Source: Candidatus Latescibacterota bacterium (GTDB lineage: Bacteria > Latescibacterota > UBA2968 > UBA8231). From it: 64,000 bases of DNA. A model generated the notes under the pieces. It did not search any database. It had not been told where the DNA came from and saw only the letters and a program-made list of their open reading frames with translations. Positions within the stretch are counted from its first letter, which is position 1; each line of letters starts with the position of its first letter. The stretch is from contig OZ241362.1 in the NCBI GenBank assembly GCA_965200315.1, positions 2,784,001-2,848,000 on the forward strand, written 5' to 3'. Below, piece by piece: positions 18,255 through 62,156 of this stretch. The position numbers were made by a program, and so were the translations under genes.

Positions 18255-20852
18255 TTGGCGATCCTGTTTAACGAATTAAAGCAATCCGCTCTTGAATGGC
18301 GCAAGAACGGATATGCCTGTGATGAATACCCACTTATAGGCGAAATCCTCGCGTTCCAGATTGAAACACAGGAAGGCACCGCAACGCTCAAGTTCCTGCG
18401 TGACCCTCAGTTTCTCGCCCTTGAGGTGTATTGGTATGTCCGTCTCAAACTGAACACCCCTCACATCATAGACCTCTACAAGCACTACTACGGGGACGAT
18501 AAGAGAACTTTTTTTGAGACTCTCGGCGTTCCCATCTCGAGGGATGCGTTGGAATGGGCGACCACAGAGGCCGTTATCGAGAAGGTCAAAAGCGATCCCG
18601 ATTTTGTCTCTAAAAAGAAAATTCAGGCATTGCACGAGGCGGCGATGTTGGACTATCCGAGTTACATCCTCGCCTTGGCAATGGGTGCCGGGAAAACCGT
18701 GCTGATCGGGACGATTATAGCCACCGAGTTTGCCATGTCCCTGCGCTACCATCCCAAGGGCCACTTCATGAAAAACGCCCTCGTATTTGCGCCCGGCACG
18801 ACGATAATAGAATCCTTGCGCGAACTTAGCGATATGCCTTATGAGAACATTCTGCCGCCCGATCTCTATCGAGATTTTGCCGCCAATTTGAAAATTGAAT
18901 ACCCGAACAACGAAAAGGACATACAGGCTCAGACCAGCAGCAGCTATAACTTGATTATCACCAATACCGAAAAAATCAGTCTGCGAGCGCGGCGGAGAAG
19001 TAATCAGACCGAACTGGATTTCAAGGAAAAGGAACTACAAGCGAATTTGAGACTGCAAAAAATCGCCAGTCTGCCGGACCTCGGCATCTTCTCCGATGAA
19101 GCGCATCACACCTATGGAAATACCTTCAATCAGCTAAAGCGGGTGCGGGAAACCATCAACTACATCCATGAAAAAACCCCTATTGTCGCAGTCGTAAACA
19201 CCACCGGAACGCCTTATTACAAGAGACAGTATCTGAAAGAGGTTATTGTCTGGTATGGACTTGGAGATGGCATCAAGGATAACATCCTCAAAGATCTCAA
19301 CGACGGAATTCACCAATACGACATTAGCAAGCAGGCGGAGCAGAGCGTATTCAATGACATTATCCGGGAGTTTTTCAACCAATACGGCAAGGTCTCACTT
19401 CCGAACGGAGCAAAGGCGAAAATTGCTTTTTACTTTAAGACACAAGATCACTTGGACGATTCCCGTCCTTGGATTGAGCAGGCCATGACGGGAATGGGCG
19501 AAAACGTTTCTCAGATATTGGTTAATACCCAGCAATCAAGCCCGCCGGAAGTGGATGAATTTAAGCGCCTCAACAACCCGGCTAACCAGAAGCGCGTGAT
19601 TCTTCTGATTGGCAAAGGCGTTGAAGGATGGAACTGCCCAAGCCTGTTTGCCTGTGCGCTCATCAAAGAGCAGACGGCGAGCAACAACTACGTTTTACAG
19701 GCGGCGACCCGGTGCCTGCGACAGGTGCCGGGAAACAGGCACTCGGCGAAGGTATTTGTCGATTACGGCAATGTGCGGACGCTAGACAAGGAACTAAAAG
19801 ATAATTTTGGCACTGACCTCGACCTGCTCAGCGCGGCGTCGGGAGACAAGGAGACCGTAACACTGCGTATTGTAAAAACGGAACTGCCCAAACTGGAAAT
19901 CACCCGCACGATCAAGCGGGTTGTCCGCACTGAAAAACCAAGCGGTCATATCGCCCTGAACAAACCGGAATCGCAAGAAGTTCCTGTAGTACTACGCAGT
20001 ATCCTGACGCCGGATTTTAGCGGGCCACGGGAAATCCTGCTGCCGACTGGCGACACCAAGGAACTACCGGCCATAGCGGAGATGACGGGTTGCCATACTG
20101 CCGCTTGGAAGATCGCCTCGCGCTACCACCTGCCGGTAATGCCAATTTTGAAAAAACTCAATAGCCTGTATCCCGAAGGAGAAATGCCAAATAGCCATTT
20201 ATATGGGCTGTTCGAGCAAGTCGAGAGACAGCAAGCGAACTACGAAACCGTAGAAGAAAAAGTCACTGAGGCGATGGCCTTGATTCGGGTTCAGGATGAG
20301 AATGGAAATGATATTTTTGAAAAGGATGAGGACGGCGTTTACGTCCACCATCTGCGCCTGCTTAGGCGGACTTACGACCGGATGAGAACCGGCGGCCTGT
20401 TTGCCGACCGCGAGGAATATGTAGACGAGCACGACCTGACTTTTCACTACACGCCGTACAATTTTGACAGCGAACCGGAGCGGTCCTTTTTCCGGCAAAT
20501 TCTGTCCGCGCTCAATACAAACCCCGATGATGTGGAGGTGTTTCTGTTTACGGGCGGATTGACCGACCCAAAGAAGACTGACTTTCATTTTGAATACATG
20601 GGTGAGGACAAGCGATATCACCGCTATTTCCCCGACTTTGTCATTGTCAAGAAGACGGGCGAGTTTTACATTGTCGAGGTGAAAGATGAAAGCGAGCGTG
20701 GCGATAGAATAGTAGAGGCGAAGAAAAAGGCGGTAGAGAGATTGCAGAAGATGCAACCCGATAAGTTCAGGTATAATATCGTCTATACTTCGGCGACCGC
20801 AACGAGCGCGGCGCAAATCAAGCCAGTTGCTACTTGGATAAACTCACAGTGA
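18255..20852 (+). CDS. res: Type III restriction enzyme Res subunit (SF2 helicase + PD-(D/E)XK nuclease)
   Basis: AMGAGKT Walker A, DEAHH, TGTP, EGWN, QAATRCLR and C-terminal YFPDF...IVEVKD; TTG start after agggag. Confidence 0.85.
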   Translation: MAILFNELKQSALEWRKNGYACDEYPLIGEILAFQIETQEGTATLKFLRDPQFLALEVYWYVRLKLNTPHIIDLYKHYYGDDKRTFFETLGVPISRDALEWATTEAVIEKVKSDPDFVSKKKIQALHEAAMLDYPSYILALAMGAGKTVLIGTIIATEFAMSLRYHPKGHFMKNALVFAPGTTIIESLRELSDMPYENILPPDLYRDFAANLKIEYPNNEKDIQAQTSSSYNLIITNTEKISLRARRRSNQTELDFKEKELQANLRLQKIASLPDLGIFSDEAHHTYGNTFNQLKRVRETINYIHEKTPIVAVVNTTGTPYYKRQYLKEVIVWYGLGDGIKDNILKDLNDGIHQYDISKQAEQSVFNDIIREFFNQYGKVSLPNGAKAKIAFYFKTQDHLDDSRPWIEQAMTGMGENVSQILVNTQQSSPPEVDEFKRLNNPANQKRVILLIGKGVEGWNCPSLFACALIKEQTASNNYVLQAATRCLRQVPGNRHSAKVFVDYGNVRTLDKELKDNFGTDLDLLSAASGDKETVTLRIVKTELPKLEITRTIKRVVRTEKPSGHIALNKPESQEVPVVLRSILTPDFSGPREILLPTGDTKELPAIAEMTGCHTAAWKIASRYHLPVMPILKKLNSLYPEGEMPNSHLYGLFEQVERQQANYETVEEKVTEAMALIRVQDENGNDIFEKDEDGVYVHHLRLLRRTYDRMRTGGLFADREEYVDEHDLTFHYTPYNFDSEPERSFFRQILSALNTNPDDVEVFLFTGGLTDPKKTDFHFEYMGEDKRYHRYFPDFVIVKKTGEFYIVEVKDESERGDRIVEAKKKAVERLQKMQPDKFRYNIVYTSATATSAAQIKPVATWINSQ

Positions 20853-20971
20853 GGAGGTAGGCATGAAAACTCATAACTTATTCTTGATCATATTCTGACG
20901 ACTATCAAAAATTAAAGTCGCTACTGGAAACTCACAGTTGTTGAAACCTTCCTTTTGCAGGTAAAAATTAA

Positions 20972-22795
20972 ATGAAAACTCCACTCAAAATCGCCCCGAT
21001 CAAAGGTCGCCCAATGCTGCATTGGGTTGGCAAGAAACCACTAGACGTTGTGCGGCATTTTCCAGCGCAGTTGTGTGAGACGGTGGAAGTTGACAATCCG
21101 TCGGCCGAGCCGTCCTATAAGGAGTTTGTCAAGAGTAATTACAATCTGCTCTTTCACGGCGATAACAAGGAGATTCTCTCCTCGCTTTTGACTGCCGGAT
21201 TTCGGAGCAAGATTGATCTAATCTATATTGATCCGCCCTTTGATTCTGGAGCGGATTATGTCCGCACAGTTCGGTTGCGCGGGCAGTCTGTAAAACTGGA
21301 AGGCAAGGAGCATTCTTCTATTGAACAGGCGCAGTACGAGGATATATGGGCAAACGATAATTATTTACAGTTCATGTATGAACGGCTGATTTTAATGCGG
21401 GAATTGCTGAGTGATAAGGGCAGCATTTATCTGCATTGTGACCCGAACAAGTCTCACTCTCTTAAACTGCTCATGGATGAGGTATTCGGTACAGAAAATT
21501 TCTTGAATGATATTTCATGGTGCTACAGCGAGCGAGAGGCAGATAAAAAGAAATACAATTGGAAACACGACTGCCTACTATTCTATAGCAAGGATTCAAC
21601 AGCAAATAGGATTTTTAATTGGCGAGAAATTGCTATTGATTATGCGGAATCTAGCGTCAAAAAGTACAACCTGACAGACAATGCAGGTCGGCGGTTTCAA
21701 ATTAGAGGGGGCGGTGGACACCTAACTGGAAAACAACAACTCAAACTTGAAGATGAACAGAAATATCCCGATTGGACTTACCGAGATTATTTGGATGAAA
21801 AAGAAGGTGTCCCGCCCCGCGATTATTTCACCGATATAGATTTTGAGAATCGCGCATCGAATCGCAGGACAGAATATCCCACCCAAAAACCCGAGGCCCT
21901 TTTAGAACGTATAATCAAGGCGTCAAGCAATGAAGGTTCCATCGTCTTGGACTGCTTCTGCGGCTCCGGCACTACCGCCGCTGTTGCGGAAAAGCTGGGC
22001 CGCCGCTGGATTATGGCGGACCTGAACAAGGGCGCGATTCAAACCACCATCAAGCGACTGCAAGGCATTATCCAAAAAAAGAACGGCGATCTTATAGACA
22101 ATGGACGAGGGTTGATTCACTACCGGGTGAACAACTACGATTTTGCCAAAGAGAATGGACTTAAAAAAATTATCATCTCCAAATACGGTATTCAAACAGA
22201 TCGCAAGGACTTATTCTTTGACGGGTTAGCCGGCGAACAGTTGGCGAAAATCATTGAATTGAACCGACCACTGACTCGCCTAGACATTCAGATTATCAAG
22301 GACGAAATCGCCAACAACCGGCCTGACGAAACGCGCGATATCGCGGTTTTCTGCAACGGATCGGAATTGGGGATCATCGAAGAACTCGCCCAGGAGAAAA
22401 GTCCGATCAATAAAATAATCGTCCGCGACATTCAACAAGACGGCATGATCACTAACCATCCACCAGAAGCAGACGTGAGAATTGCCAAAAAAGGCAAAGA
22501 AGTTAAGATCAAAATTACCGACTACATTAGCCCTTCCATCCTTGCGAGAATGGAAATAGACAGAACATTCTTCGAGGAGCAAATCGGCGACTTTCAGGCA
22601 CAGATCGACTGCGTTCTAATTGACACCGACTACAACGGCGAAAATTTCAACATCGTAGAAAGCGACCTGCCGCAGAGGAAAACCGATTTCATCAAGGGTG
22701 AATACAAATTGACGCTTCCCCGCGCCGATGCGACAGTGGCGGTAAAAATAGTCGATATGCTGGGAGAGGAAGTGGTCGCGGTCGCACAACCGTAA
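20972..22795 (+). CDS. mod: Type III R-M Mod subunit, beta-class amino-methyltransferase
   Basis: IYIDPPF, YPTQKPEALLERII and LDCFCGSGTT in beta order; adjacent to res; lower GC. Confidence 0.88.
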   Translation: MKTPLKIAPIKGRPMLHWVGKKPLDVVRHFPAQLCETVEVDNPSAEPSYKEFVKSNYNLLFHGDNKEILSSLLTAGFRSKIDLIYIDPPFDSGADYVRTVRLRGQSVKLEGKEHSSIEQAQYEDIWANDNYLQFMYERLILMRELLSDKGSIYLHCDPNKSHSLKLLMDEVFGTENFLNDISWCYSEREADKKKYNWKHDCLLFYSKDSTANRIFNWREIAIDYAESSVKKYNLTDNAGRRFQIRGGGGHLTGKQQLKLEDEQKYPDWTYRDYLDEKEGVPPRDYFTDIDFENRASNRRTEYPTQKPEALLERIIKASSNEGSIVLDCFCGSGTTAAVAEKLGRRWIMADLNKGAIQTTIKRLQGIIQKKNGDLIDNGRGLIHYRVNNYDFAKENGLKKIIISKYGIQTDRKDLFFDGLAGEQLAKIIELNRPLTRLDIQIIKDEIANNRPDETRDIAVFCNGSELGIIEELAQEKSPINKIIVRDIQQDGMITNHPPEADVRIAKKGKEVKIKITDYISPSILARMEIDRTFFEEQIGDFQAQIDCVLIDTDYNGENFNIVESDLPQRKTDFIKGEYKLTLPRADATVAVKIVDMLGEEVVAVAQP

Positions 22796-22847: not shown

Positions 22848-24794
22848 ATGAGCCAGCCCTGTATCAGCGACGCCCAATCCCTCGAGCCGCCCCCAGCCGT
22901 TCTCGACGCCGCGCTGGGCCGGCTCGGCTTTGAGCGCTTTCTGCCCGGCCAACGCGAGGCCATCGAAACCCTGCTCGCCACCGGTCGCCTGCTTTTGGTC
23001 GCCCCCACTGGCGGCGGCAAGAGTTTGACCTACCAGCTACCTGCGGCCCTCCTGCCAGGCACGGCCTTAGTGGTCTCGCCGCTCATCGCCCTGATGCACG
23101 ATCAAGTGCAAGCATTAGAAAGGCGCGGCCTCGCCGCCACGTACCTATCCTCCACTCTCGATGGCGACGAGTTGCGCCGCCGCATGCGCGGGGTAGCCCA
23201 AGGCCAGTACAAGCTGGTCTATGCCGCGCCCGAACGGCTGACCTTCTCCGGCTTCCGCGCCCTCCTGAGCCAGATCAAGTGCTCGCTCATTGCCGTGGAC
23301 GAAGCCCACTGCATCAGCGAGTGGGGCCACGACTTCCGGCCCGAGTACTTGCAGATCGGCGAGCTAGTAAGCGAGTTGCCCGATTGTCGAGTCCTCGCCT
23401 GCACCGCCACGGCCACGCCGGTGGTGCGCGACGAAATCCTCGAACGCCTCGGGCTGCCAAGCGGCACCCCACAGCTAGTGCGCGGCTTTGCGCGGCCCAA
23501 CCTCTCGCTGCGAGTCGTCGAAATCAACAGGGCCGCCGAGCGGCGGCGGCGGGTTGATGCCTTGCTGGCCGAAGCACTCAAAGGCCCCAACCGCAAACCG
23601 GGCACCGCCATCGTCTATGCGCCTACCCGCAAGGGCACGGAGGAAGAAGCCGCCCGGCTGCAAGGGGATGGCTGGCGGGTGGCCGCTTATCACGCGGGCA
23701 TGACGGGGCCAGACCGCGACGCCGTTCAGCGCGCCTTTATGCAAGATCAAATCCAAGTCGTGGTGGCTACCAATGCCTTTGGCATGGGTATTGACCGCGC
23801 CGATGTGCGCGCCATTGCCCATCTGGCCCCACCCAGCTCAATTGAAGCGTACTATCAGGAAGTGGGCCGCGCTGGGCGCGACGGCCAAGACGCCTACTGC
23901 CTGCTGCTGGTCTCGCCCGGCGACATGGCACTGCGCCGGCACCTAATACAAAGCGATGCCAACGGCCGCGCTCCCGACCAAGCGGTGGTCCAGCACAAGT
24001 GGAATCTCTTTTTAGAGCTGATGCGTTGGTGCGAGGGCGGCTCCTGTCGCCACGACGCGATTTTGCGCTACTTCGGCGACGAGGAAGAAACGCTCTCGGG
24101 CTGTGGTCGCTGCGACGTCTGTTGTAGTCTCTCTCATGCCGAGGCGGGCGATGCCACAGAGGTCGCCACCACCGTGCGCAAAGCCCTTTGCGCGGTCGCC
24201 CGCCTGCACGGACGCTACGGCATCCAAATGGCGGCCAAGCTCCTGCGCGGCACTCAAGACGTGCGTCTTGCACGCGACGGCCTAGATCGAACTCCGACCT
24301 TTGGCATCCTCAAGGAGTATCCTGAGCGCTGGCTTTTGCAGCTTTTGCGCCGGTTGGTCACGGCCGGTTGGATCGATTTTTCCGGCGGCGAGCGGCCGGT
24401 CGTGATCCTCACGGAAGAGGGACGCCAAGTCATTCACGCCGAGCGGCCCGCACGCCTACTGCTGCCGCCGAAGTCGGCCCCGCCCCCGGCAGCCCGCACC
24501 GCGCGCGTCCGTCCTTCGGCTGAGCTCAGGTCGAAGCCTCGCATTCCCGATCCTAGCGAGAGTTTTGACGAAAATGCCCAAGCCCTCTTCGATGCACTGC
24601 GCCATCACCGCATGACGCTGGCCCGCGACGAAAAGGTTCCGCCCTACGTCATCGCCAGCGACCGCACGCTCCGCGATATCGTCCTGCTGCGGCCTGCCAA
24701 CCTCGAAGAGCTCAAACTGGCGCACGGCATTGGCCCGGCCAAGGCCGAAAAATACGGCGACGGTCTGCTGGCTATCGTCCAACAGGCTGCCTGA
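22848..24794 (+). CDS. recQ: RecQ family DNA helicase with RQC and HRDC domains
   Basis: PTGGGKS, DEAHCISEWGHDFRPEY, TATA, ATNAFGMGID, QEVGRAGRDG, CGRCDVC and HRDC (VPPYVI...GIGPAKAEKYG). Confidence 0.95.
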   Translation: MSQPCISDAQSLEPPPAVLDAALGRLGFERFLPGQREAIETLLATGRLLLVAPTGGGKSLTYQLPAALLPGTALVVSPLIALMHDQVQALERRGLAATYLSSTLDGDELRRRMRGVAQGQYKLVYAAPERLTFSGFRALLSQIKCSLIAVDEAHCISEWGHDFRPEYLQIGELVSELPDCRVLACTATATPVVRDEILERLGLPSGTPQLVRGFARPNLSLRVVEINRAAERRRRVDALLAEALKGPNRKPGTAIVYAPTRKGTEEEAARLQGDGWRVAAYHAGMTGPDRDAVQRAFMQDQIQVVVATNAFGMGIDRADVRAIAHLAPPSSIEAYYQEVGRAGRDGQDAYCLLLVSPGDMALRRHLIQSDANGRAPDQAVVQHKWNLFLELMRWCEGGSCRHDAILRYFGDEEETLSGCGRCDVCCSLSHAEAGDATEVATTVRKALCAVARLHGRYGIQMAAKLLRGTQDVRLARDGLDRTPTFGILKEYPERWLLQLLRRLVTAGWIDFSGGERPVVILTEEGRQVIHAERPARLLLPPKSAPPPAARTARVRPSAELRSKPRIPDPSESFDENAQALFDALRHHRMTLARDEKVPPYVIASDRTLRDIVLLRPANLEELKLAHGIGPAKAEKYGDGLLAIVQQAA

Positions 24795-24858
24795 ATGCTC
24801 ATAAACCAAAGGGGGAAGTAACTAAAAGTTTGTTTCTTTTGAGGATATGTTACCCTCG

Positions 24859-24898
24859 GCAGCGGCTCGGCATCTGCGTCGCCGAAAATAATCGTGCC
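24859..24898 (-). pseudogene. 40-nt fragment of a clan AA aspartic protease gene
   Basis: Encodes GTIIFGDADAEPL, identical in protein to 57734-57773 (35/40 nt). Confidence 0.65.
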
Positions 24899-24908
24899 GA
24901 CGGTCGAG

Positions 24909-25097
24909 CTAAGCGGTTGCTGGCGGCTCCGTTTTCTGGTCACCCAAACGACAGGAGGGCAATCTGATATACTGTCGGCCGCTGGCCTGCTCTTGCGCTT
25001 TGAGGTCCTCGACGATCAAATCTAAGTCGTAACCAAACCGCGCTGCATGTTCCTGTCTAATGCGCCGCACTTCGGCGACGATGGGATCATCTTTCAT
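24909..25097 (-). CDS. Small protein downstream of the PIN gene (putative antitoxin/partner)
   Basis: MKDDPIVAEVRRIRQEHAARFGYDL; 4-nt ATGA overlap with the PIN gene. Confidence 0.7.
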   Translation of the reverse strand: MKDDPIVAEVRRIRQEHAARFGYDLDLIVEDLKAQEQASGRQYIRLPSCRLGDQKTEPPATA

Positions 25098-25591
25098 GGC
25101 GCATCCTCCAAAAGTTCCTCCGGCTTACAGATGATCGCCGGCTCATATCCTTTATCTCGACAGAATGCCTCAATTCGCACCCTTGCGCTTGCACCAGCTA
25201 AATGGCGATAGTTCCACGTCAACAGATATGTACAGCGGTTGACTACGGCGACCGCAACGTGCAAGGCATCCTCAAGAGAAGTCTTAGGAATTGCTGCATT
25301 CTCTACCAACGTATGAGCCAAAGCTGTCGCGTTTGGGGTAATTTTGAGTAACTCCACACCTTTCAGTATATCCAGTCTGCGCTGAGCTACCTGCACATCA
25401 CCTCCACCTGCCTCTTGGAGCACCAGTTGCGAAGCAACAACTCTGAAGTCCTGTCTTCTATGCTCCCAACATTCTTGGGTCGATTGCTGATGTCCGGCTA
25501 TGACTACATCGCGGCTTGGCTTGGCCGCGAGGCAACTCGCCACCGTCGTCTCCAAGTAAACGACGGGGAGACTAGCCAGCTTGCTATTCAC
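25094..25591 (-). CDS. PIN domain (VapC-like) protein
   Basis: VYLETTV, SQLVLQEAGGGD, DALHVAVA and LLTWNYRHLA. Confidence 0.85.
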   Translation of the reverse strand: MNSKLASLPVVYLETTVASCLAAKPSRDVVIAGHQQSTQECWEHRRQDFRVVASQLVLQEAGGGDVQVAQRRLDILKGVELLKITPNATALAHTLVENAAIPKTSLEDALHVAVAVVNRCTYLLTWNYRHLAGASARVRIEAFCRDKGYEPAIICKPEELLEDAP

Positions 25592-25828
25592 GATGCGCTC
25601 CGCTGGCCTTGCGGCTCAAGGCCGATTCCAAGATGACGCCTAGCACGTCAACTGCACTTTCTTGACATGGGCTATGGACATAACTGACATAAGTATAGAA
25701 GAATTTCGCGGTTAGGAAAATTTTTGCTACTTTGAGGAGAGTCGCCGTCGGGTCGCGAATGGCTACGGCGACGGTCTGCTCGCCATCGTCCAACAGGCCG
25801 CCTAACTCGCTCGTCTGGAGAACGTTTC

Positions 25829-26800
25829 ATGGCTACAATTCGCTGGGGCATCATTGGCTGCGGTGACGTCACCGAAGTAAAGAGCGGCCCCGCTCTTTAT
25901 AAGACGCCCGATTCCGAACTGGTAGCGGTCATGCGCCGCAGCACTGACAAGGCCCGCGACTATGCCGCACGCCACGGCGTACCCAAGTGGTACGACCAAG
26001 CCGACGCACTCATCGGCGACCCGGACGTCAATGCGGTCTATATCGCGACGCCCCCCGACACCCACGCTCACTACGCGGCCCAAGTCGCCCGCGCCGGCAA
26101 ACCTGTTTACGTCGAAAAGCCGATGGCGCGCAACTACGGAGAGTGCTTGGCAATGATCGACGCCTGCCGCCGGGCCGGGGTGCCGCTTTTCGTCGCGTAC
26201 TACCGCCGCGCCCTGCCCGCTTTCCTCAAGGTCCAGTCGCTAGTTGAGGAAGGGGCTATCGGCGCGGTGCGCTTCGCTTCCATCGCGCTCTGCCAACCCG
26301 CGTCAGAGGAGCCCGACGACCTGCCTTGGCGCGTCGTCCCTGAGATTTCGGGCGGCGGCTATTTCTTCGACTTGGCCTCTCACCAGCTCGACTTCCTCGA
26401 CTTTCTCCTCGGCCCCATCGCCCAAGCCTCGGGCCACGCGCTCAACCAAGCCGGGCTCTACCAAGCCGAAGACGCCGTTACCGCCAGCTTTGCCTTCGAG
26501 TCCGGCGCACTCGGCTTAGGAGTTTGGAACTTCGCCGCGGACCAGCACCGCGACCGGATCGAAATTGTCGGCGACAAGGGCCGAATCGCCTTTTCCACGT
26601 TTGCTTTCACCCCGGTCGAATTGATTGCCAACGCCGGCCCCCAAACCTTCGCCATTGACCCACCCCAACACGTCCAGCAACCCCTAGTCCAGACGGTAGT
26701 AGATGCCCTATTGGGTCGGGGCACATGCCCCAGCACCGGCGCAAGCGCCGCTCACACTAGCCGGGTCATGGACCAAATCGTTCACGGTCATGCCGCCTAA
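25829..26800 (+). CDS. Gfo/Idh/MocA family oxidoreductase
   Basis: WGIIGCGDV, YIATPP, VYVEKPM and DLASHQLD. Confidence 0.9.
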   Translation: MATIRWGIIGCGDVTEVKSGPALYKTPDSELVAVMRRSTDKARDYAARHGVPKWYDQADALIGDPDVNAVYIATPPDTHAHYAAQVARAGKPVYVEKPMARNYGECLAMIDACRRAGVPLFVAYYRRALPAFLKVQSLVEEGAIGAVRFASIALCQPASEEPDDLPWRVVPEISGGGYFFDLASHQLDFLDFLLGPIAQASGHALNQAGLYQAEDAVTASFAFESGALGLGVWNFAADQHRDRIEIVGDKGRIAFSTFAFTPVELIANAGPQTFAIDPPQHVQQPLVQTVVDALLGRGTCPSTGASAAHTSRVMDQIVHGHAA

Positions 26801-27248
26801 AAGCCACGTCCTCAAAGCATCGATGACCTTGCCCCTCGGGCGCGAGGAGGTCTTCGCCTTCTTCGCCGAGGCGCAAAACCTCGAGCGCATTACCCCACCC
26901 GAATTGAAATTCGGCATCGTCAGCCCGACTCCCATCACAATTGCCGCCGGCACCCTCATCGACTATCGCCTCAGCCTCTTTGGCCTGTCCTTCACTTGGT
27001 GTTCGCGGATTTCACACTGGGACCCACCCCACTACTTTGTAGACGAGCAACTCAAGGGGCCTTATAGCTTTTGGCACCACACCCATACCTTCACTGAAAG
27101 CAGCGAGGGGACTGTGATCGGCGACCGCGTTCTCTACCGTCTGCCGCTGTGGCCGTTGAGCGCAATCGGTTTGCCTCTCGTCAAACTCCAGCTCAAACGC
27201 ATTTTTGCTTACCGGCAGCAGGCAATTCGCGAGCTATTGCTCCGCTAA
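26790..27248 (+). CDS. SRPBCC family protein
   Basis: VFAFFAEAQNLERITPP, FVDEQLKGPYSFWHHTH and IFAYRQ. Confidence 0.85.
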   Translation: MPPKSHVLKASMTLPLGREEVFAFFAEAQNLERITPPELKFGIVSPTPITIAAGTLIDYRLSLFGLSFTWCSRISHWDPPHYFVDEQLKGPYSFWHHTHTFTESSEGTVIGDRVLYRLPLWPLSAIGLPLVKLQLKRIFAYRQQAIRELLLR

Positions 27249-27410
27249 CGCCGCAGCGTTCGCTGCAAAATCACCTCCCTTTCCCGCCATTTTTGTCGCT
27301 CTAATCTGACAACTTTGCAATCAACGCTTGGGCAACGACCCAAATTTTCTTATTTATATAAACTTCCTCCTGCATGTATTCCATCTATCGCACCTAAAAG
27401 GGGGTTCGAC

Positions 27411-28703
27411 ATGCTGATTCGCGGAAAGTGGGGCCTCCTCGCCCTGCTAGCTTTTGTTTTTTTCGCAGTCCCCAATACTGCCTTCGCCCAAGACAAGCTC
27501 GACACCGGCGACACGGCTTGGATTCTGATTTCCACCGGCTTGGTTCTCTTTATGATGATCCCCGGCTTGGCCATGTTTTACGCCGGTTTGGTCCGCACCC
27601 GCAATGTGCTCTCGGTCTTTATGCACTGCTTTGGGATTGCAGCCCTGATCACGGTCTTGTGGACCATTTTCGGTTATAGCTTGGCCTTTACGGCCAGCAA
27701 CCCCTTTATCGGCAACCTGTCCAAGTCTTTTCTCAGCGGCGTTACTGTAGATAGCCTTTCGGGCACCATCCCGGAATTGCTGTTCTTCGTCTTCCAGATG
27801 ACGTTTGCCATCATCACCCCTGGGCTTTTTGTCGGTGCCTTTGCCGAGCGCATGAAGTTTTCGGCCGTGCTGTGGTTCAGTGGGCTGTGGTGCGTTTTGG
27901 TCTATCTGCCCATCACGCACATGGTCTGGGGAGAGGGCGGCTACTTGGGTGCAATGGGCGTCTTTGACTTTGCTGGCGGCATCGTCGTCCACATCACTGC
28001 CGGAGCAGCCGCGTTGGTCGCCGCGATCCTCGTCGGCAAGCGCACCGGCTATCCCGAGCAGCCCATGCCCCCGCACAACATGACCATGAATCTCGTCGGC
28101 ACGGCCATGCTCTGGGTGGGGTGGTTCGGCTTCAATGGCGGCAGTGCCTTGGCGGCGAATGGGCAGGCGGCTATGGCGGTCGTAGTCACCCAGATCTCGC
28201 CCAGCGTCGCGGCACTGACGTGGATTTTTATCGAATGGATCAAAAACGGCAAACCAAGTGCGCTCGGTTTTGCCACTGGTGCCATCGCCGGGCTGGCAGC
28301 CATTACCCCGGCTTCCGGGACAGTGGGGCCGCTCGGCGCTTTTGCCATCGGCCTGTGCTCCGGTGTCGTCGCTTATTGGGCCGCCACTTGGCTCAAGCGC
28401 ACCTGCGGGTACGACGACGCGCTCGACGTAGTAGGGGTTCACGGCTTCGGCGGCTTGGTCGGAGTTTTGCTGGTGTCCTTCTTCGCCTCGACCTCTTTGG
28501 GTGGCACCGTCGAGGGCCTCAACATGGGCAAGCAATTCGGCATCCAAGCCTTCGCCGCTGTCGTCACAGCCGTTTACACTCTGATCGTCTCGTTTATCAT
28601 TCTCAAGGTCATCGACTCAGTCAGCGGCCTGCGGGTAGATGAAGAGACCGAGGCCGACGGACTCGATGTGGGCGAGCACGGCGAAGTGGGATACGACCTG
28701 TAG
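27411..28703 (+). CDS. amtB: Ammonium transporter
   Basis: PGLAMFYAG, FQMTFAIIT, DFAGGIVVH, WVGWFGFNGGS, AITP, DDALDVVGVHG and GLD..EHGE. Confidence 0.95.
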   Translation: MLIRGKWGLLALLAFVFFAVPNTAFAQDKLDTGDTAWILISTGLVLFMMIPGLAMFYAGLVRTRNVLSVFMHCFGIAALITVLWTIFGYSLAFTASNPFIGNLSKSFLSGVTVDSLSGTIPELLFFVFQMTFAIITPGLFVGAFAERMKFSAVLWFSGLWCVLVYLPITHMVWGEGGYLGAMGVFDFAGGIVVHITAGAAALVAAILVGKRTGYPEQPMPPHNMTMNLVGTAMLWVGWFGFNGGSALAANGQAAMAVVVTQISPSVAALTWIFIEWIKNGKPSALGFATGAIAGLAAITPASGTVGPLGAFAIGLCSGVVAYWAATWLKRTCGYDDALDVVGVHGFGGLVGVLLVSFFASTSLGGTVEGLNMGKQFGIQAFAAVVTAVYTLIVSFIILKVIDSVSGLRVDEETEADGLDVGEHGEVGYDL

Positions 28704-28741
28704 TTCGCGGCCCAATAGCTCGCCGCTTGGATGGGGCTCCT

Positions 28742-29584
28742 ATGGATGCTTCTTGCTTGCAGTACGCGTTGACCGAGGCCGAACGCCTAGAGTTCTCCCA
28801 GCGCGGCTACGTTGTCTTCGACGAGATGCTGCCTCCCGACGTGGTTGACCCACTAGTGGAAGTCTCCGACCGGATTGACGCGGAGGAACGCCAAAAGCGC
28901 GGCGTCGGCCCCTACGACCGGCTGACCGTCCGCGACATGGTTTGGCGCGACGAACGCTACCTAGCCTTGGTCGATTGGCCCCGAGCACTGCCCAAGGTCT
29001 GGGGAACCCTCGGCTGGAATATCCAGATTTACCACACCGTCCTCGCCTACAGTCCGGCCGCCGAGCCTAACAACTGCCAAGTCAAGATGCAGGGCTGGCA
29101 CCAAGACTCGGACCGCGTCAACCACGAGATCGAGTCCATCCCCCGGCCGCGGATTTCGGTCAAGATGGCCTATTTCCTCAGCGACTGTTCGGCAGCAGGC
29201 CGCGCCAATTTCTGGGTCGTGCCCGGCAGCCATGTGCTGGCCGAGTATGACATCCCCGACGACGGCTCTTTGCCCCGCAACGCCGTCCCCGTGTTGGTGC
29301 CGCAGGGCGGGGCTGTGCTCTTCGACCGTCGGATTTGGCACTCGGCCAGTTCCAATGTCTCCGCTGTTGCCCGCAAAGTGCTTTTCTACGGCTACTCCTA
29401 TCGCTGGCTCCGCCCCCGCGACGACCAGACCGTCGAACACCTTTTTGAGCACTCTGACCCGATTCGCCGCCAGCTATTGGGGTATGCGCCTACCGGCGGC
29501 TACGGTTACACCTCGCCTACCGATGAGGACGTTCCACTGCGCGTCTTTCTGCGCCAACATCTCGGGGCCGAAGCCGCCTCCTGA
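28742..29584 (+). CDS. PhyH family dioxygenase
   Basis: WHQD, VVPGSH, FDRRIWH and YGYSYRWLRP. Confidence 0.85.
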   Translation: MDASCLQYALTEAERLEFSQRGYVVFDEMLPPDVVDPLVEVSDRIDAEERQKRGVGPYDRLTVRDMVWRDERYLALVDWPRALPKVWGTLGWNIQIYHTVLAYSPAAEPNNCQVKMQGWHQDSDRVNHEIESIPRPRISVKMAYFLSDCSAAGRANFWVVPGSHVLAEYDIPDDGSLPRNAVPVLVPQGGAVLFDRRIWHSASSNVSAVARKVLFYGYSYRWLRPRDDQTVEHLFEHSDPIRRQLLGYAPTGGYGYTSPTDEDVPLRVFLRQHLGAEAAS

Positions 29585-30606: not shown

Positions 30607-30639
30607 GCAATGTCGTTGGGTGGGCTGCTAATTCTCTGC

Positions 30640-31082
30640 TCACAACGGAGCGCGACAAGTACCACTTTCAAAAGTGGGCCGTTGAACTTGCCGAGGGCTT
30701 TGTAACGGCGAAACGATCCGCAGATGGCGGTATTGATGGCCGGATTTACTTTGATGGTGATAATACCGAGGATTTGGAAAGCATGATCTTGGAAGTGAAG
30801 GGGGGTAGGACGGTATCACAAGCCGATCTGCGCGGGCTGCGCGGTGCGCGGGCCGATAGTAGCGCATTGTTGGGGGGGCTTATTGTCCTACATCCACTTG
30901 GGCAACGACAAGAAACGAATTTCAAGCGCTAGATGGCGCGGGCCGGTACGGTGTCGATTAGAGGCCGGAAGTATCCCAAGCTACAACTCAGGACCGTAGA
31001 GCAAATACTAGCCGGTGAGAACTTCGATACGCCGCCGGTACTAGGCCGTCAGCAGAAGGCGCAACAACAACTTGACCTTTAG
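30640..31082 (+). pseudogene. C-terminal remnant of a methyltransferase-restriction (Mrr-like) fusion
   Basis: DKYHFQKWAV...ADGGIDGR...LEVKGG; in-frame TAG at 30930-30932, then YPKLQLRTVEQIL; N-terminus missing. Confidence 0.65.
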
Positions 31083-31163
31083 GACAAAGCCCCTATCATT
31101 GCCATTAGTAATGGCGTCCGTCCAACAGGATGCGTCCCATCCATCACCGTAGGAGGAATCCCT

Positions 31164-32660: not shown

Positions 32661-32726
32661 TGTCCGCGTCCGAGATCGCTTAGTTTTTCTAGGGTCATTA
32701 CTGCTCTTTGCCAGTGGTGACCATCT

Positions 32727-32761: not shown

Positions 32762-32795
32762 CTCCCAGCGGCGTGGTAGCGGCTAGCAACCGGAC

Positions 32796-36920: not shown

Positions 36921-36953
36921 AGGAAACTCCTCCGCTAAAAATTTCTACGATCG

Positions 36954-48461: not shown

Positions 48462-48567
48462 CAACGGAAGGAACCTTGGAGCCGAGAAATCGAGACCTTT
48501 GACCGGGCTGCATAGCGTCTGGCGGCGGTAACATAAAAGGTACGCCCGGGCAAGGGCAGGCACGGTA

Positions 48568-48613
48568 CATAAGAAAGCTCAGGCCCTCCTTACAGGACCT
48601 GAGCTTTCTTATG
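48568..48613. terminator. Long hairpin between convergent genes (probable bidirectional terminator)
   Basis: cataagaaagctcagg...cctgagctttcttatg, a 16-bp perfect inverted repeat. Confidence 0.65.
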
Positions 48614-48641
48614 GGCAGTTTGTATTTCGTATTAACTCGGC

Positions 48642-50372: not shown

Positions 50373-50386
50373 CGGTTACTTCCTCC

Positions 50387-52556: not shown

Positions 52557-53345
52557 CTACTCGCCCTCCAACGACCGCCGCATCGCCTCTCCTTGATCGC
52601 GCCAGTACCCGTATAGCACCGCTATATCCGTGCCGACGCAGAAATGCCGCACCCCCATGTCGAGAAAGCGCTTGGCGTCGTCGGCTGTGTTGATTTCGGC
52701 GCGCGGATGGACGCCCATTTCCAAGGCCGTCTTAAAAACCTTTTCTTCGGCCGCGGCAATTTCCGGCACGCCGCGCTGGCCGGCCTTGCCGATGCTCATG
52801 GAGTAATCGGCCCCTCCCCATTGGACCATCTCGGCTCCTTCTACCGAGAGCATGGCCTCCAAATCGGCGACGGCACTTTCCTTTTCGATCATCAAAACCA
52901 CGACCACGTCGCGCAGGGCTTGGACGTATTCTGGGGTGCCGCCATAGCTCATATAGGCGATGCGCCGCATAGCCACCCCATAGGTGCCTTCCTCTCCGGG
53001 CGCGTCGGCGCGTACGCAGCGCACACAGGCCCGCGCGTCGTCCGGGTCGCGCACATCGGCAAACAGTACGCTGCCGAAGCCCGACCCTATGGCCCGTTGG
53101 GCCACGTAAGCGCGGTTTTCGGCATCGACCTTGATCATCGATCCCAAGTCCCATAGCTCGGCGGCGCGGGCGAGGTTGTCCAAGTCGTGTAGGTCAAAGG
53201 GGCCGTACTCGGCGACAAACTCCACGTAGTCGTACGCGCCCGTATGTCCTAGGGCTTCGACGACCGAAGGCCAAGTGGTGTGGATGTGGGTGCCTAGCGT
53301 GGGCTCGCCGGCGTTGAGTTTTTCGCGCAGCTTGTTGGGTCTCAT
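52557..53345 (-). CDS. HpcH/HpaI aldolase family
   Basis: MRPNKLREKL, EFVAEY, MIEK and WGGADYS. Confidence 0.8.
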   Translation of the reverse strand: MRPNKLREKLNAGEPTLGTHIHTTWPSVVEALGHTGAYDYVEFVAEYGPFDLHDLDNLARAAELWDLGSMIKVDAENRAYVAQRAIGSGFGSVLFADVRDPDDARACVRCVRADAPGEEGTYGVAMRRIAYMSYGGTPEYVQALRDVVVVLMIEKESAVADLEAMLSVEGAEMVQWGGADYSMSIGKAGQRGVPEIAAAEEKVFKTALEMGVHPRAEINTADDAKRFLDMGVRHFCVGTDIAVLYGYWRDQGEAMRRSLEGE

Positions 53346-57500: not shown

Positions 57501-57874
57501 ATGGGAGCAACGCACGTCACTGTAACGATTCGCAACCCGGCCGCGCCGGACCGCACTTGGGAAGGGCTTTTTCTGGTGGATACCGGGCGACCGATTGTCT
57601 CGTCCCGAGGCCGCACCTCGAATCCATCGGCCTCAAGTCGAAAGGCCAACGGACGTATGAACTGGCCAATGGGGCCGAACTAATACTCGACGTCACGAGC
57701 GCGGACATCGAATTTATGGGAGAATTCGTCGGCGGCACGATCATCTTCGGCGACGCGGACGCCGAGCCACTGCTCGGGCTGACGGCGATCGAATCGGTCG
57801 GCATTGAAGTCGATCCGCTGAATCAGCGGCTAAAAAGGCTACCAGCGGTTCGCCTCAAACGATTTGTAGAGTAG
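57501..57874 (+). pseudogene. Clan AA (retropepsin-like) aspartic protease with a 1-nt frameshift at the DTG|A catalytic motif
   Basis: LVDTG in one frame; ATDCLVP...EPLLGLTAIES.GIEVDP in the next; shift in a G run near 57587. Confidence 0.8.
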
Positions 57875-58463: not shown

Positions 58464-58859
58464 ATGACCCAACGCAAAGCACACAACCTCGCCTGGCCTT
58501 GGACCGAAAATTTCCGCATCTCGCAGGCAGTGCAAGTCGGCGATACGATCTATGTCTCCGGCCAAGGGCCGCTCGACTCAGAGGGCCAACTCGTCGGCGA
58601 AGGCGACATGGCCGCGCAGTCGCGCCAAGTCTTTGCCAACATCCGCGCCGTACTCGTCGAGGCCGGCGCGACCATGGACGACGTGGTCAAGATCACCTCG
58701 TTTATCACCGATACCAGCCGCTATGCAGAATACTCGGCCGCCCGCGCCGAAACCTTTCCCAACCACATCCCCGCCAGTTCTACCGTGACGGTCGCCGACT
58801 TGGTGATACCCGGTATGCTCGTCGAGGTCGAAGCCATAGCCGTTGTGGGTAGCAGCTAA
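58464..58859 (+). CDS. RidA/YjgF/UK114 family protein
   Basis: SQAVQVGDTIYVSGQ, DVVK and LVEVEAIA. Confidence 0.9.
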   Translation: MTQRKAHNLAWPWTENFRISQAVQVGDTIYVSGQGPLDSEGQLVGEGDMAAQSRQVFANIRAVLVEAGATMDDVVKITSFITDTSRYAEYSAARAETFPNHIPASSTVTVADLVIPGMLVEVEAIAVVGSS

Positions 58860-59086
58860 CTACCTCGGCTCCCGATATACATCCGGCCCGGAGCCGCCGA
58901 CCAAGATATCCAAATCAACGCCCTTGTCGGCTTGGAGCACGTCCCGCGTGGCGACCGCGCAAACTAGTCTATATCGTGCCCGATGAGTCACCGGGTAGAA
59001 GGCCCGTTATAGATTTTTCCCGTGGATCATGTGTCAGAGATAAACGTCTTGGGAAAAATCCTCGACCAAGTCTTTGGCCAAATAGG

Positions 59087-59202
59087 CTGTCAATTATCCT
59101 GTCAAATAAGAGCGAATTTTGCCCAGTTTCCTTGTTGATATAATATAAGTTCATTATTTATTGTATATTAAAAAAATTTACTATCTGTCAAATTAACTGT
59201 CA
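59087..59202 (+). promoter_or_regulatory. AT-rich promoter with two CTGTCA-N6-CTGTCA direct-repeat pairs
   Basis: CTGTCA at 59087, 59099, 59185 and 59197 (12-nt period) upstream of fic. Confidence 0.5.
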
Positions 59203-59217
59203 TATAAGGGGACAAAT

Positions 59218-60411
59218 ATGGACTGGGAAAGGTTCTCCTTCGAGTACAATCTCAACGCTCAAGACTTCTTTTGCGACCTCGTCTCTATCGAGGCATACAA
59301 GGAAGCCTCTCTGAACCTAGCGTTCCCACAAGAGTGGCAGAACCAGCTCAACAGGCTGAACCGAGTGCGTGCGGTTCATGGAACGACTGCAATAGAGGGC
59401 AACCCTCTTTCCGAGGCCGAGGTTGCCCAGCAGATGGAACGACTCGAACAACAAAATCACCACGATGACAGGAAGACCGCGACAAAGGAACAAGTGCAGA
59501 TCAGGAACGCCGGGGAGGCTCAGGCTTGGGTGAGGCAACGATTTCTTCCGAACAGCCCGCCTATTGGCTTGCAAGACATCCTCACAATGCACGAGATGAT
59601 CACCCGGGATTCGGATACCGGCCATAATGTTCCTGGGGAATTCCGCCGCTTTTCCGTCACCGTGGGCACGGAAGATCTTGGAGGAGTCCATAGAGGTGCC
59701 CCGTACGAATGGCTGCCTCGCTTAATGGAGGAGTACATCGATTTCATCAACTCTCGCCGGCTCGACGACAATCATCCGGTTATACGCGCCCTGCTCGCCC
59801 ACTTCTTCTTGGTGACCATTCACCCTTTTGGAGATGGCAACGGCAGGGTCTCCCGACTCGTTGAAGCAGGCGTCCTCTTTCAGCGTGGGTACAATGTCCA
59901 TGGCTTTTACGGACTCTCCAATTACTTCTATCGCCACGAACAGGAATACAAATCAATCCTACAACAATGCCGCAGAAGCCAGCCTTTTGACGTGAGGCCG
60001 TTTATTCGCTTCGGCGTGGCCGGCTTTGCGAGTGAGCTCAAAGACATAAACAATTTCATCAAGACGAAGATCAATCGGCTGGTGTACCGGACCATGATCG
60101 TCCGTGCATTCAATAAAAGGATAGGTGCTAGACGGCGGCTCCTAAACCAAAGAGAATTCAGTCTCCTCGACTTTCTCCTGAGCGAGACCGAGCCGGTAGA
60201 TCCCTTCTCAGATACCTCGTCCAGCAGAATCAGTCTGTCAGAGCTACTGGAGGCAAACTACATGCAGTCGGCATATCGGAATGTCACGAGACGAACTTTT
60301 CATAGGGAGTTGGTACGACTCAGTGAACTTGGGTTCATCAAGTTCACTAAAGAGGAGTCGATTCAGGACTGGGTCGTGGAGTTGGATTTTGGAGCCATAC
60401 CAAAGTATTAA
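59218..60411 (+). CDS. Fic family protein with a probable C-terminal winged HTH
   Basis: Canonical HPFGDGNGRVSR, N-terminal TTAIEGN inhibitory-like motif and VTRRTFHRELVRL..LGFI. Confidence 0.9.
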   Translation: MDWERFSFEYNLNAQDFFCDLVSIEAYKEASLNLAFPQEWQNQLNRLNRVRAVHGTTAIEGNPLSEAEVAQQMERLEQQNHHDDRKTATKEQVQIRNAGEAQAWVRQRFLPNSPPIGLQDILTMHEMITRDSDTGHNVPGEFRRFSVTVGTEDLGGVHRGAPYEWLPRLMEEYIDFINSRRLDDNHPVIRALLAHFFLVTIHPFGDGNGRVSRLVEAGVLFQRGYNVHGFYGLSNYFYRHEQEYKSILQQCRRSQPFDVRPFIRFGVAGFASELKDINNFIKTKINRLVYRTMIVRAFNKRIGARRRLLNQREFSLLDFLLSETEPVDPFSDTSSSRISLSELLEANYMQSAYRNVTRRTFHRELVRLSELGFIKFTKEESIQDWVVELDFGAIPKY

Positions 60412-60431
60412 GTGATGCGCTAAGCACTGAA

Positions 60432-62156
60432 CTACCTCGGCTCCCGATATACATCCGGCCCGGAGCCACCGACCAAGATATCCAAGTCAACGCCTTTGTC
60501 GGCTTGAAGCACGTGCTTGATATACAAGCCGGCATAACCCCGCGTGACGACCGGCGCGGGCGGCGTCCACGCTTGTCGCCTGCTTTGTAGCTCCTCGTCG
60601 GGCACCGCCATGTTCAACGACCGCTTCTCCACGTCTAACTCGATCAGGTCGCCGTCCTGCACCAAGGCCAGCGGGCCACCCACGGCGGCTTCGGGCGCGA
60701 CGTGCAGAATCACCGTGCCGTAGGCCGTGCCGCTCATCCGTCCGTCCGAGATGCAAACCATGTCGCGCACGCCTTGCTGCAATAGCTTCTTGGGCAATCC
60801 GAACTTCCCGGCCTCGGGCATCCCGGGGAAACCTTTTGGGCCGATGCCCTTTAAGACCAACACGCTATCTTTGTCCACGTCGAGATTGGGATCGTCAATC
60901 CGCGCCCTGTAGTTTTCTATACTTTCAAACACCACGGCTCGTCCGCGGTGCTGCATCAGCTCGGGCGCGGCGGCCGACGGCTTGATAATCGCCCCATCCG
61001 GGCAGAGGTTGCCCCGCAGCACGGCGATCCCGGCCGCTTCCTTGAGCGGATTGTCGATCGCGGCGATGACCTCTCGGTTGTAGCATTGGGCACCCGAGGT
61101 GTTTTCGCCGAGCGTCTTGCCCGTCACCGTCAACGTATCCAGATGCAGATGCTCCTTCATCTCTTGGATCACGGCGGGCAAGCCCCCGGCGTAGAAGAAG
61201 TCCTCCATCAGATATTTGCCCGAAGGCATTAGGTTGACCAAGTGCGGCATGCGGCTGCCCAAGCGGTCGAAGTCGTCTAATTCCAACTCGACGCCGAGCC
61301 GTCCGGCGATGGCCAACAGATGCACCACGAAGTTGGTCGAACCGCCCAGCACTGCGTTGACCTTGATGGCGTTTTCTATGGCTGGCCGCGTCAAAATGCG
61401 CGACATGTACAAACCTTCTCTCACCATCTCGACGATGCGATTGCCCGCCAGATGCCCCAAGCGCTTGCGCCGCGCATCTGGCCCTGGAATGGCTGCACCG
61501 CTCGGCAGCGTCAGCCCGACAGTCTCGACCATGCAGGCCATCGTTGAGGCCGTGCCCATGGTCATGCAGTGGCCGTCCGAGCGCGAAATCCCGCCCTCGG
61601 CCTCCAGGTAATCTAAGCGCGAGATGCTCCCGGCTCGCAGCTCGGTCGTAAAGCGATAGACATCCGTGCCGGAGCCGATATCCTGATTGCGGAACTTGCC
61701 GTTGAGCATCGGCCCGCCCGTCACCGCAATGGTCGGCAAATCTACGCTCGCCGCGCCCATCAGGCTGGCTGGCGTCGTTTTGTCGCAGCTAGTTAGCAGC
61801 ACCACCCCGTCGAGCGGATTGGCGCGGATGCTTTCCTCCACGTCCATGCTCGCCAAATTGCGGTAGAGCATGGTCGTTGGCTTCATCATTGTCTCGCCGA
61901 GCGAAGTGACTGGAAATTCGAGCGGAAAGCCCCCGGCCTCGTACACCCCGCGCTTGACCTGCTCGGCCAAGACCCGCAGATGGGCGTTGCAAGGATTCAA
62001 GTCCGACCACGTGTTGCAGATCCCGATCACGGGTCGGCCGTCGAACATCTGCTCGGGATGGCCTTGGTTTTTGGCCCAGCCGCGGGATACAAATCCTTGG
62101 TGCCACTCGTCGCCAAACCACCCCGCACTGCGGAGCTTCTTGTTGTCGCCTGTCAT
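60432..62156 (-). CDS. IlvD/Edd family dehydratase (sugar-acid/arabinonate dehydratase-like)
   Basis: NPCNAH, CDKTTP, GHCMTMGTASTM, GGSTN and SDGRMSGTAYG. Confidence 0.92.
   Translation of the reverse strand: MTGDNKKLRSAGWFGDEWHQGFVSRGWAKNQGHPEQMFDGRPVIGICNTWSDLNPCNAHLRVLAEQVKRGVYEAGGFPLEFPVTSLGETMMKPTTMLYRNLASMDVEESIRANPLDGVVLLTSCDKTTPASLMGAASVDLPTIAVTGGPMLNGKFRNQDIGSGTDVYRFTTELRAGSISRLDYLEAEGGISRSDGHCMTMGTASTMACMVETVGLTLPSGAAIPGPDARRKRLGHLAGNRIVEMVREGLYMSRILTRPAIENAIKVNAVLGGSTNFVVHLLAIAGRLGVELELDDFDRLGSRMPHLVNLMPSGKYLMEDFFYAGGLPAVIQEMKEHLHLDTLTVTGKTLGENTSGAQCYNREVIAAIDNPLKEAAGIAVLRGNLCPDGAIIKPSAAAPELMQHRGRAVVFESIENYRARIDDPNLDVDKDSVLVLKGIGPKGFPGMPEAGKFGLPKKLLQQGVRDMVCISDGRMSGTAYGTVILHVAPEAAVGGPLALVQDGDLIELDVEKRSLNMAVPDEELQSRRQAWTPPAPVVTRGYAGLYIKHVLQADKGVDLDILVGGSGPDVYREPR

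Follow-up and report, generated by a model that had tools for sequence, protein, structure and literature searches.

Here we analyzed a window of 64,000 nucleotides (C1:2784001-2848000) from the genome of a Candidatus Latescibacterota bacterium, termed G000, and in particular the short cassettes, or islets, that stand directly behind some of its genes and are followed by a second, displaced copy of the same gene end. The genome is a single contig of 5.36 Mb with a GC content of 0.59 (0.592), and the sequencing runs that contain its DNA are sponge metagenomes. For comparison 25 congeners (G001 and so on) were used. An initial annotation of the window had claimed such duplications behind recQ, a sodium:solute symporter (SSS) gene, an HpcH aldolase gene, an IlvD-like gene and, possibly, res. 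It described the islets as toxin-antitoxin (TA) or Fic cargo that docks at 3' ends without an integrase, and, in the two cleanest cases, it read the two copies as two alleles of the gene.

The recQ and IlvD gene ends

The host gene of the first islet is recQ (22848-24794, + strand), in which the Pfam domains DEAD, Helicase_C, RecQ_Zn_bind, RQC and HRDC are found. Its last 40 nt (24753-24792, + strand), the functional end that leads into a TGA stop, are present again as a direct repeat at 25764-25803, with 37 of 40 positions identical and all three differences synonymous; the duplication claimed for this gene is thus real. The stop codons differ, being TGA in copy 1 and TAA in copy 2. Together with its TAA the displaced copy occupies 25764-25806 (+ strand) and is followed by the native spacer and by a GFO/IDH/MocA gene (25829-26800; Pfam). 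The cargo between the copies (24795-25763, - strand; GC 0.52 vs 0.59 in the genome) has two overlapping open reading frames (ORFs) of 62 (24909-25097) and 165 amino acids (25094-25591) in a TA-like layout. Neither gave an above-threshold Pfam or PADLOC match, and the longer one showed only a weak PIN similarity (E 0.047).

A 54-nt piece at the left end of this cargo (24849-24902) is found at many loci across the congeners. It was considered as a shared cassette terminus and rejected, since it is a fragment of a multi-copy gene of clan-AA aspartic-protease-like type and matches the ORF at 57557-57874. This small ORF shows similarity to TIGR03698 (E 8e-13, below the cut-off), and copies of the gene adjoin variable cassettes in many congeners. 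Within the recQ coding region there is also a segment of ~30 nt (24509-24541) with 97-100% matches at many unrelated congener loci and at G000:C1:3474434-3474462.

The recQ-GFO site is found in several states among the relatives. In 10 congeners it is empty, with a single copy of the gene end and recQ abutting the GFO gene, whilst G013 and G004 have the same cargo as G000 with both copies. Five others (G002, G014, G009, G011, and G001) hold a different cargo between two copies, and in G005, G008, and G016 there are inserts without a second copy. The alternative cargos include a 590 amino acid ORF, a 0.8-kb insert, and one or two secreted-type P_proprotein/CARDB proteins of 1150-1300 amino acids together with a DUF5615 gene. 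All of these inserts are free of integrases, including those of 5-9 kb in G001 and G011, and the larger, integrase-bearing elements that would have marked the islets as decayed ordinary islands were not seen at this site. The boundaries of the repeat, which is ~58 nt long in the relatives, are constant across five different cargos, which points to a single old duplication with later turnover of the cargo. In G000, copy 2 shows no difference from the allele that G003 has at its empty site, and the sequence flanking it corresponds to the spacer of empty sites. Copy 1 has a different stop and a different, G005-like flank, which points to a second patch laid over the first.

The second clear case is an IlvD/Edd-family dehydratase gene (60432-62156, - strand; Pfam ILVD_EDD_N and ILV_EDD_C), the host of a Fic islet. 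A stretch of 92 nt at its functional end (60423-60514, - strand) is repeated with 92% identity at 58851-58942 (- strand), where the displaced copy abuts a Ribonuc_L-PSP gene (58464-58859). In the 85-nt core of the repeat there are four differences, all synonymous, in agreement with the initial annotation, and by eye the remnant can be followed for another ~18 nt upstream, past an internal deletion of 24 nt. The cargo (58943-60422, + strand) holds a Fic-domain gene (59218-60411; Pfam Fic, PADLOC SoFic 3.9e-49) with a 90-nt piece ahead of it that was matched in none of the congeners searched.

This site (IlvD-RidA) is empty in 13 of 25 congeners, in which the IlvD and Ribonuc_L-PSP genes stand tail-to-tail with zero spacer, and the flank of copy 2 in G000 has this same empty-site arrangement. 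In G007 and G023 a Fic cargo of 87% identity lies at the site without any remnant and with the 4-nt sequence GCTA at both joints. Fic fragments were found here in G008 and G004, and other cargo in G002 and G019. All 14 relatives compared are at least as close to the G000 remnant as to its functional copy (13 closer, one equal), and copy 1 carries substitutions that are found in none, or in just one, of them. Together with the identity of recQ copy 2 to the G003 allele, this upholds the two-allele view of the initial annotation in these two clean cases.

Gene-end scars along the genome

For 3355 genes of at least 150 amino acids, the terminal 100 nt (+15) were aligned against the following 5 kb with a score of at least 20, and the same ends were aligned against a 5-kb stretch 30 kb off as a far control. 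The genes come from a crude in-house caller that miscalled some of them (for example the aldolase gene HpcH1 discussed below), so that gene-based counts are approximate. Gene tails recurred in 54 of the 3355 genes and in none in the far control, which confirms that the pattern exceeds chance. Gene heads aligned against the upstream 5 kb gave 31 matches, again with none in the control. A repeat-first scan started from isolated direct-repeat pairs (495), kept those with the upstream copy on a stop codon (52), applied an open-frame rule that drops tandem paralogues (21), and ended with inspection by eye, after which 18 sites were clean. The three sites dropped at the last step are 210220 (next to paralogues, an acidic repeat of low complexity), 4674217 (sequence of a terminator or repeat family) and 4782727 (26 nt, with zero ORFs between the copies). 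The 18 clean 3' scars start at G000 positions 183477, 213891, 895955, 1625104, 1754165, 1818948, 2498191, 2656147, 2808753 (recQ), 2842858 (IlvD), 2876242, 2905583, 3239561, 3848271, 3885360, 4175456, 4274487, and 5080869.

Two other kinds of repeats were met in the same genome. A dispersed family of ~120 nt with 70-97% identity, possibly MITE- or REP-like, occurs at G000:C1:4674278-4674400 and in more than 60 other places, and thousands of repeat pairs scoring 35-40 cluster at ~120-150 kb and 590-600 kb of C1 in a CRISPR-array-like manner.

All 18 clean sites share one layout, in which the functional copy is followed by foreign DNA and the displaced copy keeps the native downstream flank. The repeats are 28-316 nt long with a spacing of 0.5-4.7 kb, and 13 of the 18 have a repeat whose end falls between -6 and +8 nt from the stop codon. 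No common motif was found among the repeats of the ~18 sites, as had been noted for the targets in the window. Counted over the clean sites, the codon differences are 32 synonymous vs 33 non-synonymous, so the synonymous pattern described in the initial annotation holds for the two clean window cases and not genome-wide; elsewhere the remnant is decaying.

The scars are also not specific to 3' ends, as had been claimed. Four of the seven head-type candidates examined are clean mirror-image scars, in genes that start at 1401480, 3036383, 4732454, and 5156641. In these the repeat covers the first 28-117 nt of the gene and starts at, or a few nucleotides before, the start codon; the remnant is separated from it by the inserted gene and stands 0.65-1.6 kb upstream. 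Their cargo resembles that of the 3' scars and comprises a C5 DNA methylase, a PDC-S01-like fragment, an AAA_21/HEC-01A ATPase, and a DUF234/PDC-S27 ATPase.

Most of the cargo consists of TA or defence genes with a low GC content, which is below the genome value in 19 of the 21 cargos left after the open-frame rule. Among the families at the 3' scars are Phd/YoeB with HTH_3, DUF3226 with AAA_21 (PDC-M38A/B, AbiLi-like), UPF0150, DUF2442 with DUF4160, AAA_14/DUF4143 (PDC-S01), Fic (SoFic), and HTH_31. The cargo is nevertheless not solely of the TA and Fic type described at first, since a carbonic anhydrase and a 4.6-kb ArsP-CobW-WD40-ZIP operon are found as well. No integrase or transposase domain was detected among the 48+15 cargo ORFs scanned with Pfam and PADLOC, and no terminal inverted repeats were seen at the three window cargos tested, both as the initial annotation had it. 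In an all-against-all BLASTN comparison the 21 cargos share zero sequence with one another. Four tyrosine recombinase (Phage_integrase) genes are found in the whole genome (420, 1219, 1693, and 4974 kb), none of them closer than ~60 kb to a scar, and there are zero serine recombinases (Resolvase) and zero Ku.

Three sites outside the window were also compared among the congeners. At 2498191 the repeat is 316 nt long and 99.4% identical, with two differences, and the site is empty in all 20 genomes in which both flanking matches were found. In G001 the same cargo lies at another locus and ends in a 22-nt stretch that resembles the position of the host gene where the G000 remnant starts. Site 2876242 is empty in at least 12 genomes and its cargo was found at that site in none of the 25; here the test of which copy is the resident one is weak. 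With recQ and IlvD, these two sites show the empty state that had been proposed as a check in relatives. Site 3848271 has variable content; four relatives with the same neighbour are empty, and the DUF2442/DUF4160 pair is found at other loci in three genomes. The length of the remnant is not fixed for a given cargo and site, being ~135 nt in G000 vs none in G007 and G023 for the Fic cargo, and 316 nt in G000 vs ~45 nt in G008 for the cargo at 2498191. The same cargo and site can have a long remnant, a short one or none depending on the species, which does not support the docking first proposed.

Other insertions in the window

For the remaining genes named in the initial annotation the insertion and the duplication have to be regarded separately. 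The SSS gene (41362-43122, - strand; Pfam SSF) is followed directly after its stop codon by a PIN_10 toxin-like gene and an HTH_66 gene (40148-41244, - strand; Pfam). This pair is a real insertion, because six congeners are empty and have only 21-91 nt between the flanking matches; in G008 the same cargo is cleanly inserted in the spacer. The supposed second copy of the SSS end is a 12-nt exact match only (23/32); the native spacer of the empty-site relatives gives an alignment no worse than this, and judging from these alignments the duplication is not convincing.

The HpcH/HpaI aldolase gene HpcH1 (47079-48074, + strand; Pfam) and a second, convergent HpcH aldolase gene (52557-53345, - strand) enclose a cargo that spans 48079-52501 with a GC content of 0.44-0.52. 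A DUF433 gene (48079-48315, + strand; Pfam DUF433) is joined exactly at the HpcH1 stop codon and is followed in G000 by two genes for dynamin-type GTPases on the - strand, one LeoA-like (48642-50372; PADLOC LeoA 7.8e-109) and one LeoBC-like (50387-52501; PADLOC LeoBC 2.6e-97). This pair (48642-52501) is a candidate Eleos-like defence system. The Leo genes are absent from this site in at least 13 congeners and present in G004, G007, and G014. The insertion at the stop codon is again real, and the second copy that had been claimed was not found for either HpcH gene within 6 kb, at the DNA or the protein level. In G003, G021, G010, and G007, HpcH1 ends 20 codons earlier at a TAA that is followed by a hairpin. 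In G000 this native TAA was lost at the cargo joint and the last 20 codons (48015-48074) come from cargo DNA, whereas G002 retains a TGA at the same joint. HpcH1 has thus gained a natural C-terminal extension through islet capture.

One repeat was absent from the initial annotation. A 27-nt stretch near the 3' end of a PhyH-family gene (36954-37730, - strand; Pfam PhyH), at 36981-37007, recurs with 26 of 27 positions identical at 33487-33513 (- strand), with a stop directly after the second copy. The reading of this repeat is uncertain, because the intervening 3.5 kb are conserved among many of the congeners, at a locus with a complicated mosaic structure. Beside it, a HEAT/PhyH gene (35478-36920) lies between octopine-DH-like and PhyH genes in ~10 congeners; in G021, G010, G020, and G022 it is missing here and stands at a different locus, as a single metabolic gene that relocates.

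The res-like gene (18126-20852; Pfam) does not show a duplication of its end, the best match to its tail being 21 nt at a distance of 4.4 kb. It stands with an N6_N4 methylase gene (20972-22795; Pfam) just 5' of recQ, and this helicase and methylase pair (18126-22795) has a GC content of 0.44-0.55 vs 0.59 in the genome and may be another acquired islet, of the restriction-modification type.

Origin of the islets and comparison with known systems

The explanation that in our view probably fits these data is that the islets are not mobile elements in themselves and are the scars of a recombinase-free, homology-guided capture at gene-gain hotspots, by homology-facilitated illegitimate recombination (HFIR) or 3'-end displacement. 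Donor DNA, from a relative or from a replicon with a captured chromosomal gene end, would enter the cell carrying a conserved gene end followed by foreign cargo. On one side ordinary homologous recombination would take place inside the conserved gene. The far side, which has no homologue, would be closed by an illegitimate joint with little or no homology, tens to hundreds of bases before the end of the resident gene. The incoming end would then complete the gene and be followed by the cargo, whilst the resident end would be displaced downstream as a dead remnant that abuts the native neighbour; mirror-image events would give the scars at 5' ends. Later double crossovers in the conserved flanks could swap, spread or remove the cargo and turn the site into a hotspot, in which selfish or beneficial cargo such as TA pairs and defence genes would survive. 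We infer the sequence of these events, a linear and one-sided mechanism, and the way in which the DNA entered.

Several features support such a capture. The targets are unrelated, and recombinases, terminal repeats and shared ends are absent. In the 3' and the 5' forms, which mirror one another, the outer boundary of the repeat is the boundary of the gene, which is where the homology between donor and recipient stops. The remnants keep the native flank and, in recQ and IlvD, also the resident allele. Empty and alternative states exist at the same sites, and a fixed crossover site would hardly give remnants of different length for one cargo at one site. Indirect candidates for short homology at the joints are 5/6 nt at the recQ-remnant joint of G001, the 22-nt similar stretch of 2498191 and the GCTA of the Fic cargo in G007. 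The preference for TA and defence genes may arise from their over-representation in incoming mobile DNA, followed by their retention.

Other observations weigh against this explanation. A donor was found for none of the sites, and microhomology at the joints can therefore be examined only indirectly, and the 22-nt stretch at 2498191 could be a piece of remnant that travels with the cargo. Upstream of the IlvD repeat no block of donor tract was seen in private substitutions or per-window distances over the last 1 kb in 14 relatives, a test of low power, weakened by the divergence of ~8-10% between all species. At 3848271 copy 1, and not the remnant, is the one nearer to the relatives, which makes the differences there a matter of decay and not of two alleles. 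The constant boundaries of the recQ repeat with five cargos would also fit a site-specific process. The mechanism itself does not foresee the ratio of 3' to 5' scars, about 18 to 4-7, for which selection or ascertainment has to be invoked; both may contribute, as a promoterless 3' stub would be harmless and a 5' stub would keep its promoter and start. Finally, ComEC and DprA are present in the genome, and they say little on competence because most control genomes have them as well.

One alternative is that a strain-chimeric assembly created the duplications, since the genome comes from a sponge metagenome in which related strains co-occur. The probability of this is negligible. In a 21.8-kb contig from the run of another study only one mismatch is found over 23309-42500, a variant strain in another sample shows the same structure over 23309-30791 with 29 differences, and the same scars are found in other species, G013 and G004. 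For practical purposes a chimera is ruled out at the recQ, PhyH, and SSS sites, and the artefact that the initial annotation had allowed for is not borne out. A second alternative, of the same class as homology-guided capture and named in the initial annotation, is an integration of the Campbell type, in which a circularized fragment or small replicon with a gene end and cargo enters by a single homologous crossover in the gene end and duplicates exactly that fragment. It gives the same final anatomy, the long and nearly identical repeat at 2498191 would be a good substrate for RecA, and it predicts the absence of a donor tract upstream of the IlvD repeat, as was seen in that weak test. Yet most repeats are short (26-98 nt) and mismatched, with identical runs of only 17, 2, 14, and 4 nt in recQ, and repeats of this kind are at or below the usual minimal homology for RecA-dependent recombination. 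The contigs of four runs show no cargo-skipping joint and no circular or excised form, although contigs drop rare variants and are blind to rare excision; the contig joints that were listed had sides shorter than 30 nt and resembled conserved domains of other organisms. We regard Campbell-type integration as possible, but unlikely to be the general route.

Integrative elements classically restore the 3' end of their target gene and leave a remnant at the far side, which is the anatomy observed here, and the constant recQ boundaries across different cargos would also suit them. The islets could then be decayed or non-autonomous elements that used their own integrase at an att site in the gene end, since lost, or cis-mobilizable elements (CIMEs) or the like moved in trans. 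This is improbable. No integrase is found in any cargo or in the 5-9-kb inserts of the relatives, the few tyrosine recombinases of the genome are not near a scar, the ~18 different repeats have neither a shared motif nor a common att core, and neither the variable remnants nor the 5' cases are expected; moreover, decay would have had to spare both att copies, and nothing else, in ~18 islets. A further option is a yet undescribed trans-acting and sequence-independent system that docks recombinase-less defence or TA cassettes at stop and start codons and leaves the displaced ends as its footprint. The joints are strikingly near these codons, and the DUF2442/DUF4160 pair, the cargo of 2498191 and the DUF433 gene stand at loci that differ from genome to genome. 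The joint positions are explained, however, by short intergenic spacers and by the need for intact genes, and no candidate machinery was seen, the cargos have no common end sequence or structure, insertions occur with and without a duplication, and the remnant length varies. Such a system is very improbable, and so is its coupling to replication restart or to the termination of transcription or translation. Of the sequence-independent route sketched in the initial annotation, the homology-guided part is supported and the trans-acting recombinase or docking machinery is unsupported.

Further known systems do not fit. A transposon with a target-site duplication does not agree with the lack of a transposase, with the absence of terminal inverted repeats at three cargos and with duplications that range from 26 to 316 nt. 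Integron cassettes were rejected on the lack of shared sequence among the 21 cargos (by BLASTN, not by a structure-based attC search) and of a tyrosine recombinase within 60 kb. Mutagenic repeats like those of diversity-generating retroelements were rejected as the substitutions are not adenine-specific and a reverse transcriptase is absent.

If homology-guided capture is correct, a recombinase-free capture at gene ends would be a frequent route to defence and TA genes in an uncultivated sponge symbiont with very few recombinases, with a tally of ~18 3' and at least four 5' scars in 5.4 Mb. The displaced gene end can serve as a countable footprint of one-sided recombination, which in recQ and IlvD separates the incoming from the resident allele, and it could be used to estimate the share of illegitimate joins vs clean double crossovers or integrases in the building of defence hotspots in unculturable genomes. 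For annotation it is a warning that the capture process leaves by-products, both short "pseudogene" tails behind accessory cassettes and C-terminal extensions like the one in HpcH1.

Among known systems, the islands that restore the 3' end of a protein gene through an integrase (e14 and phage 21 at icd) and CIMEs resemble the present scars in the order of gene, element and leftover end and in copy differences that are mostly synonymous. Each depends on a single att core and on an integrase, which may be its own or a helper's, whereas neither was found here and the repeat length is not fixed.

The event itself is of a known kind, as HFIR and displacement were already proposed for other loci. 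In HFIR (de Vries & Wackernagel 2002; Prudhomme et al. 2002; Meier & Wackernagel 2003; as summarised in PMC2884548 and PMC5361080) one homologous anchor and an illegitimate joint import foreign DNA without a recombinase, and in Touzain et al. 2010 (PMC2884548) it is invoked for dimorphic loci in natural E. coli genomes. The difference is that in the present scars, for which the mechanism is inferred, the joint lies upstream of the gene end, so that the resident end is displaced and not deleted. Sequential or C-terminal displacement is described at effector-immunity loci of type VI secretion (T6SS) and at Rhs and contact-dependent inhibition (CDI) loci by Kirchberger et al. 2017 (PMC5361080), who cite Jackson et al. 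2009 and propose HFIR without the involvement of an integrase. There too, the 5' part is conserved and a new module takes its place behind it, and the former 3' end moves back together with the downstream genes as orphans. The hosts in that account are polymorphic toxins and the displaced pieces are reusable. Our scars differ in that ordinary housekeeping or metabolic genes (recQ, IlvD-like, oxidoreductases) serve as hosts, the remnants amount to short dead stubs, the cargo consists of unrelated TA or defence genes and 5' mirror cases exist. In the literature searched, an incomplete library, we did not find a genome-wide count of gene-end scars at housekeeping genes.

A parallel in behaviour is found in the minimal mobile elements of Neisseria (Saunders & Snyder 2002; Snyder et al. 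2007; as defined in PMC3787668), in which different whole-gene cassettes occur, depending on the strain, between the same conserved genes, mobility genes are absent and the flanks recombine by homology. The recQ-GFO, IlvD-RidA, and HpcH-HpcH sites behave as hotspots of this type, with different cassettes, conserved flanks and no mobility genes. As defined there, minimal mobile elements do not include a duplicated gene end, and compared with them the present scars would record the rarer one-sided event that first creates, or re-creates, the insertion.

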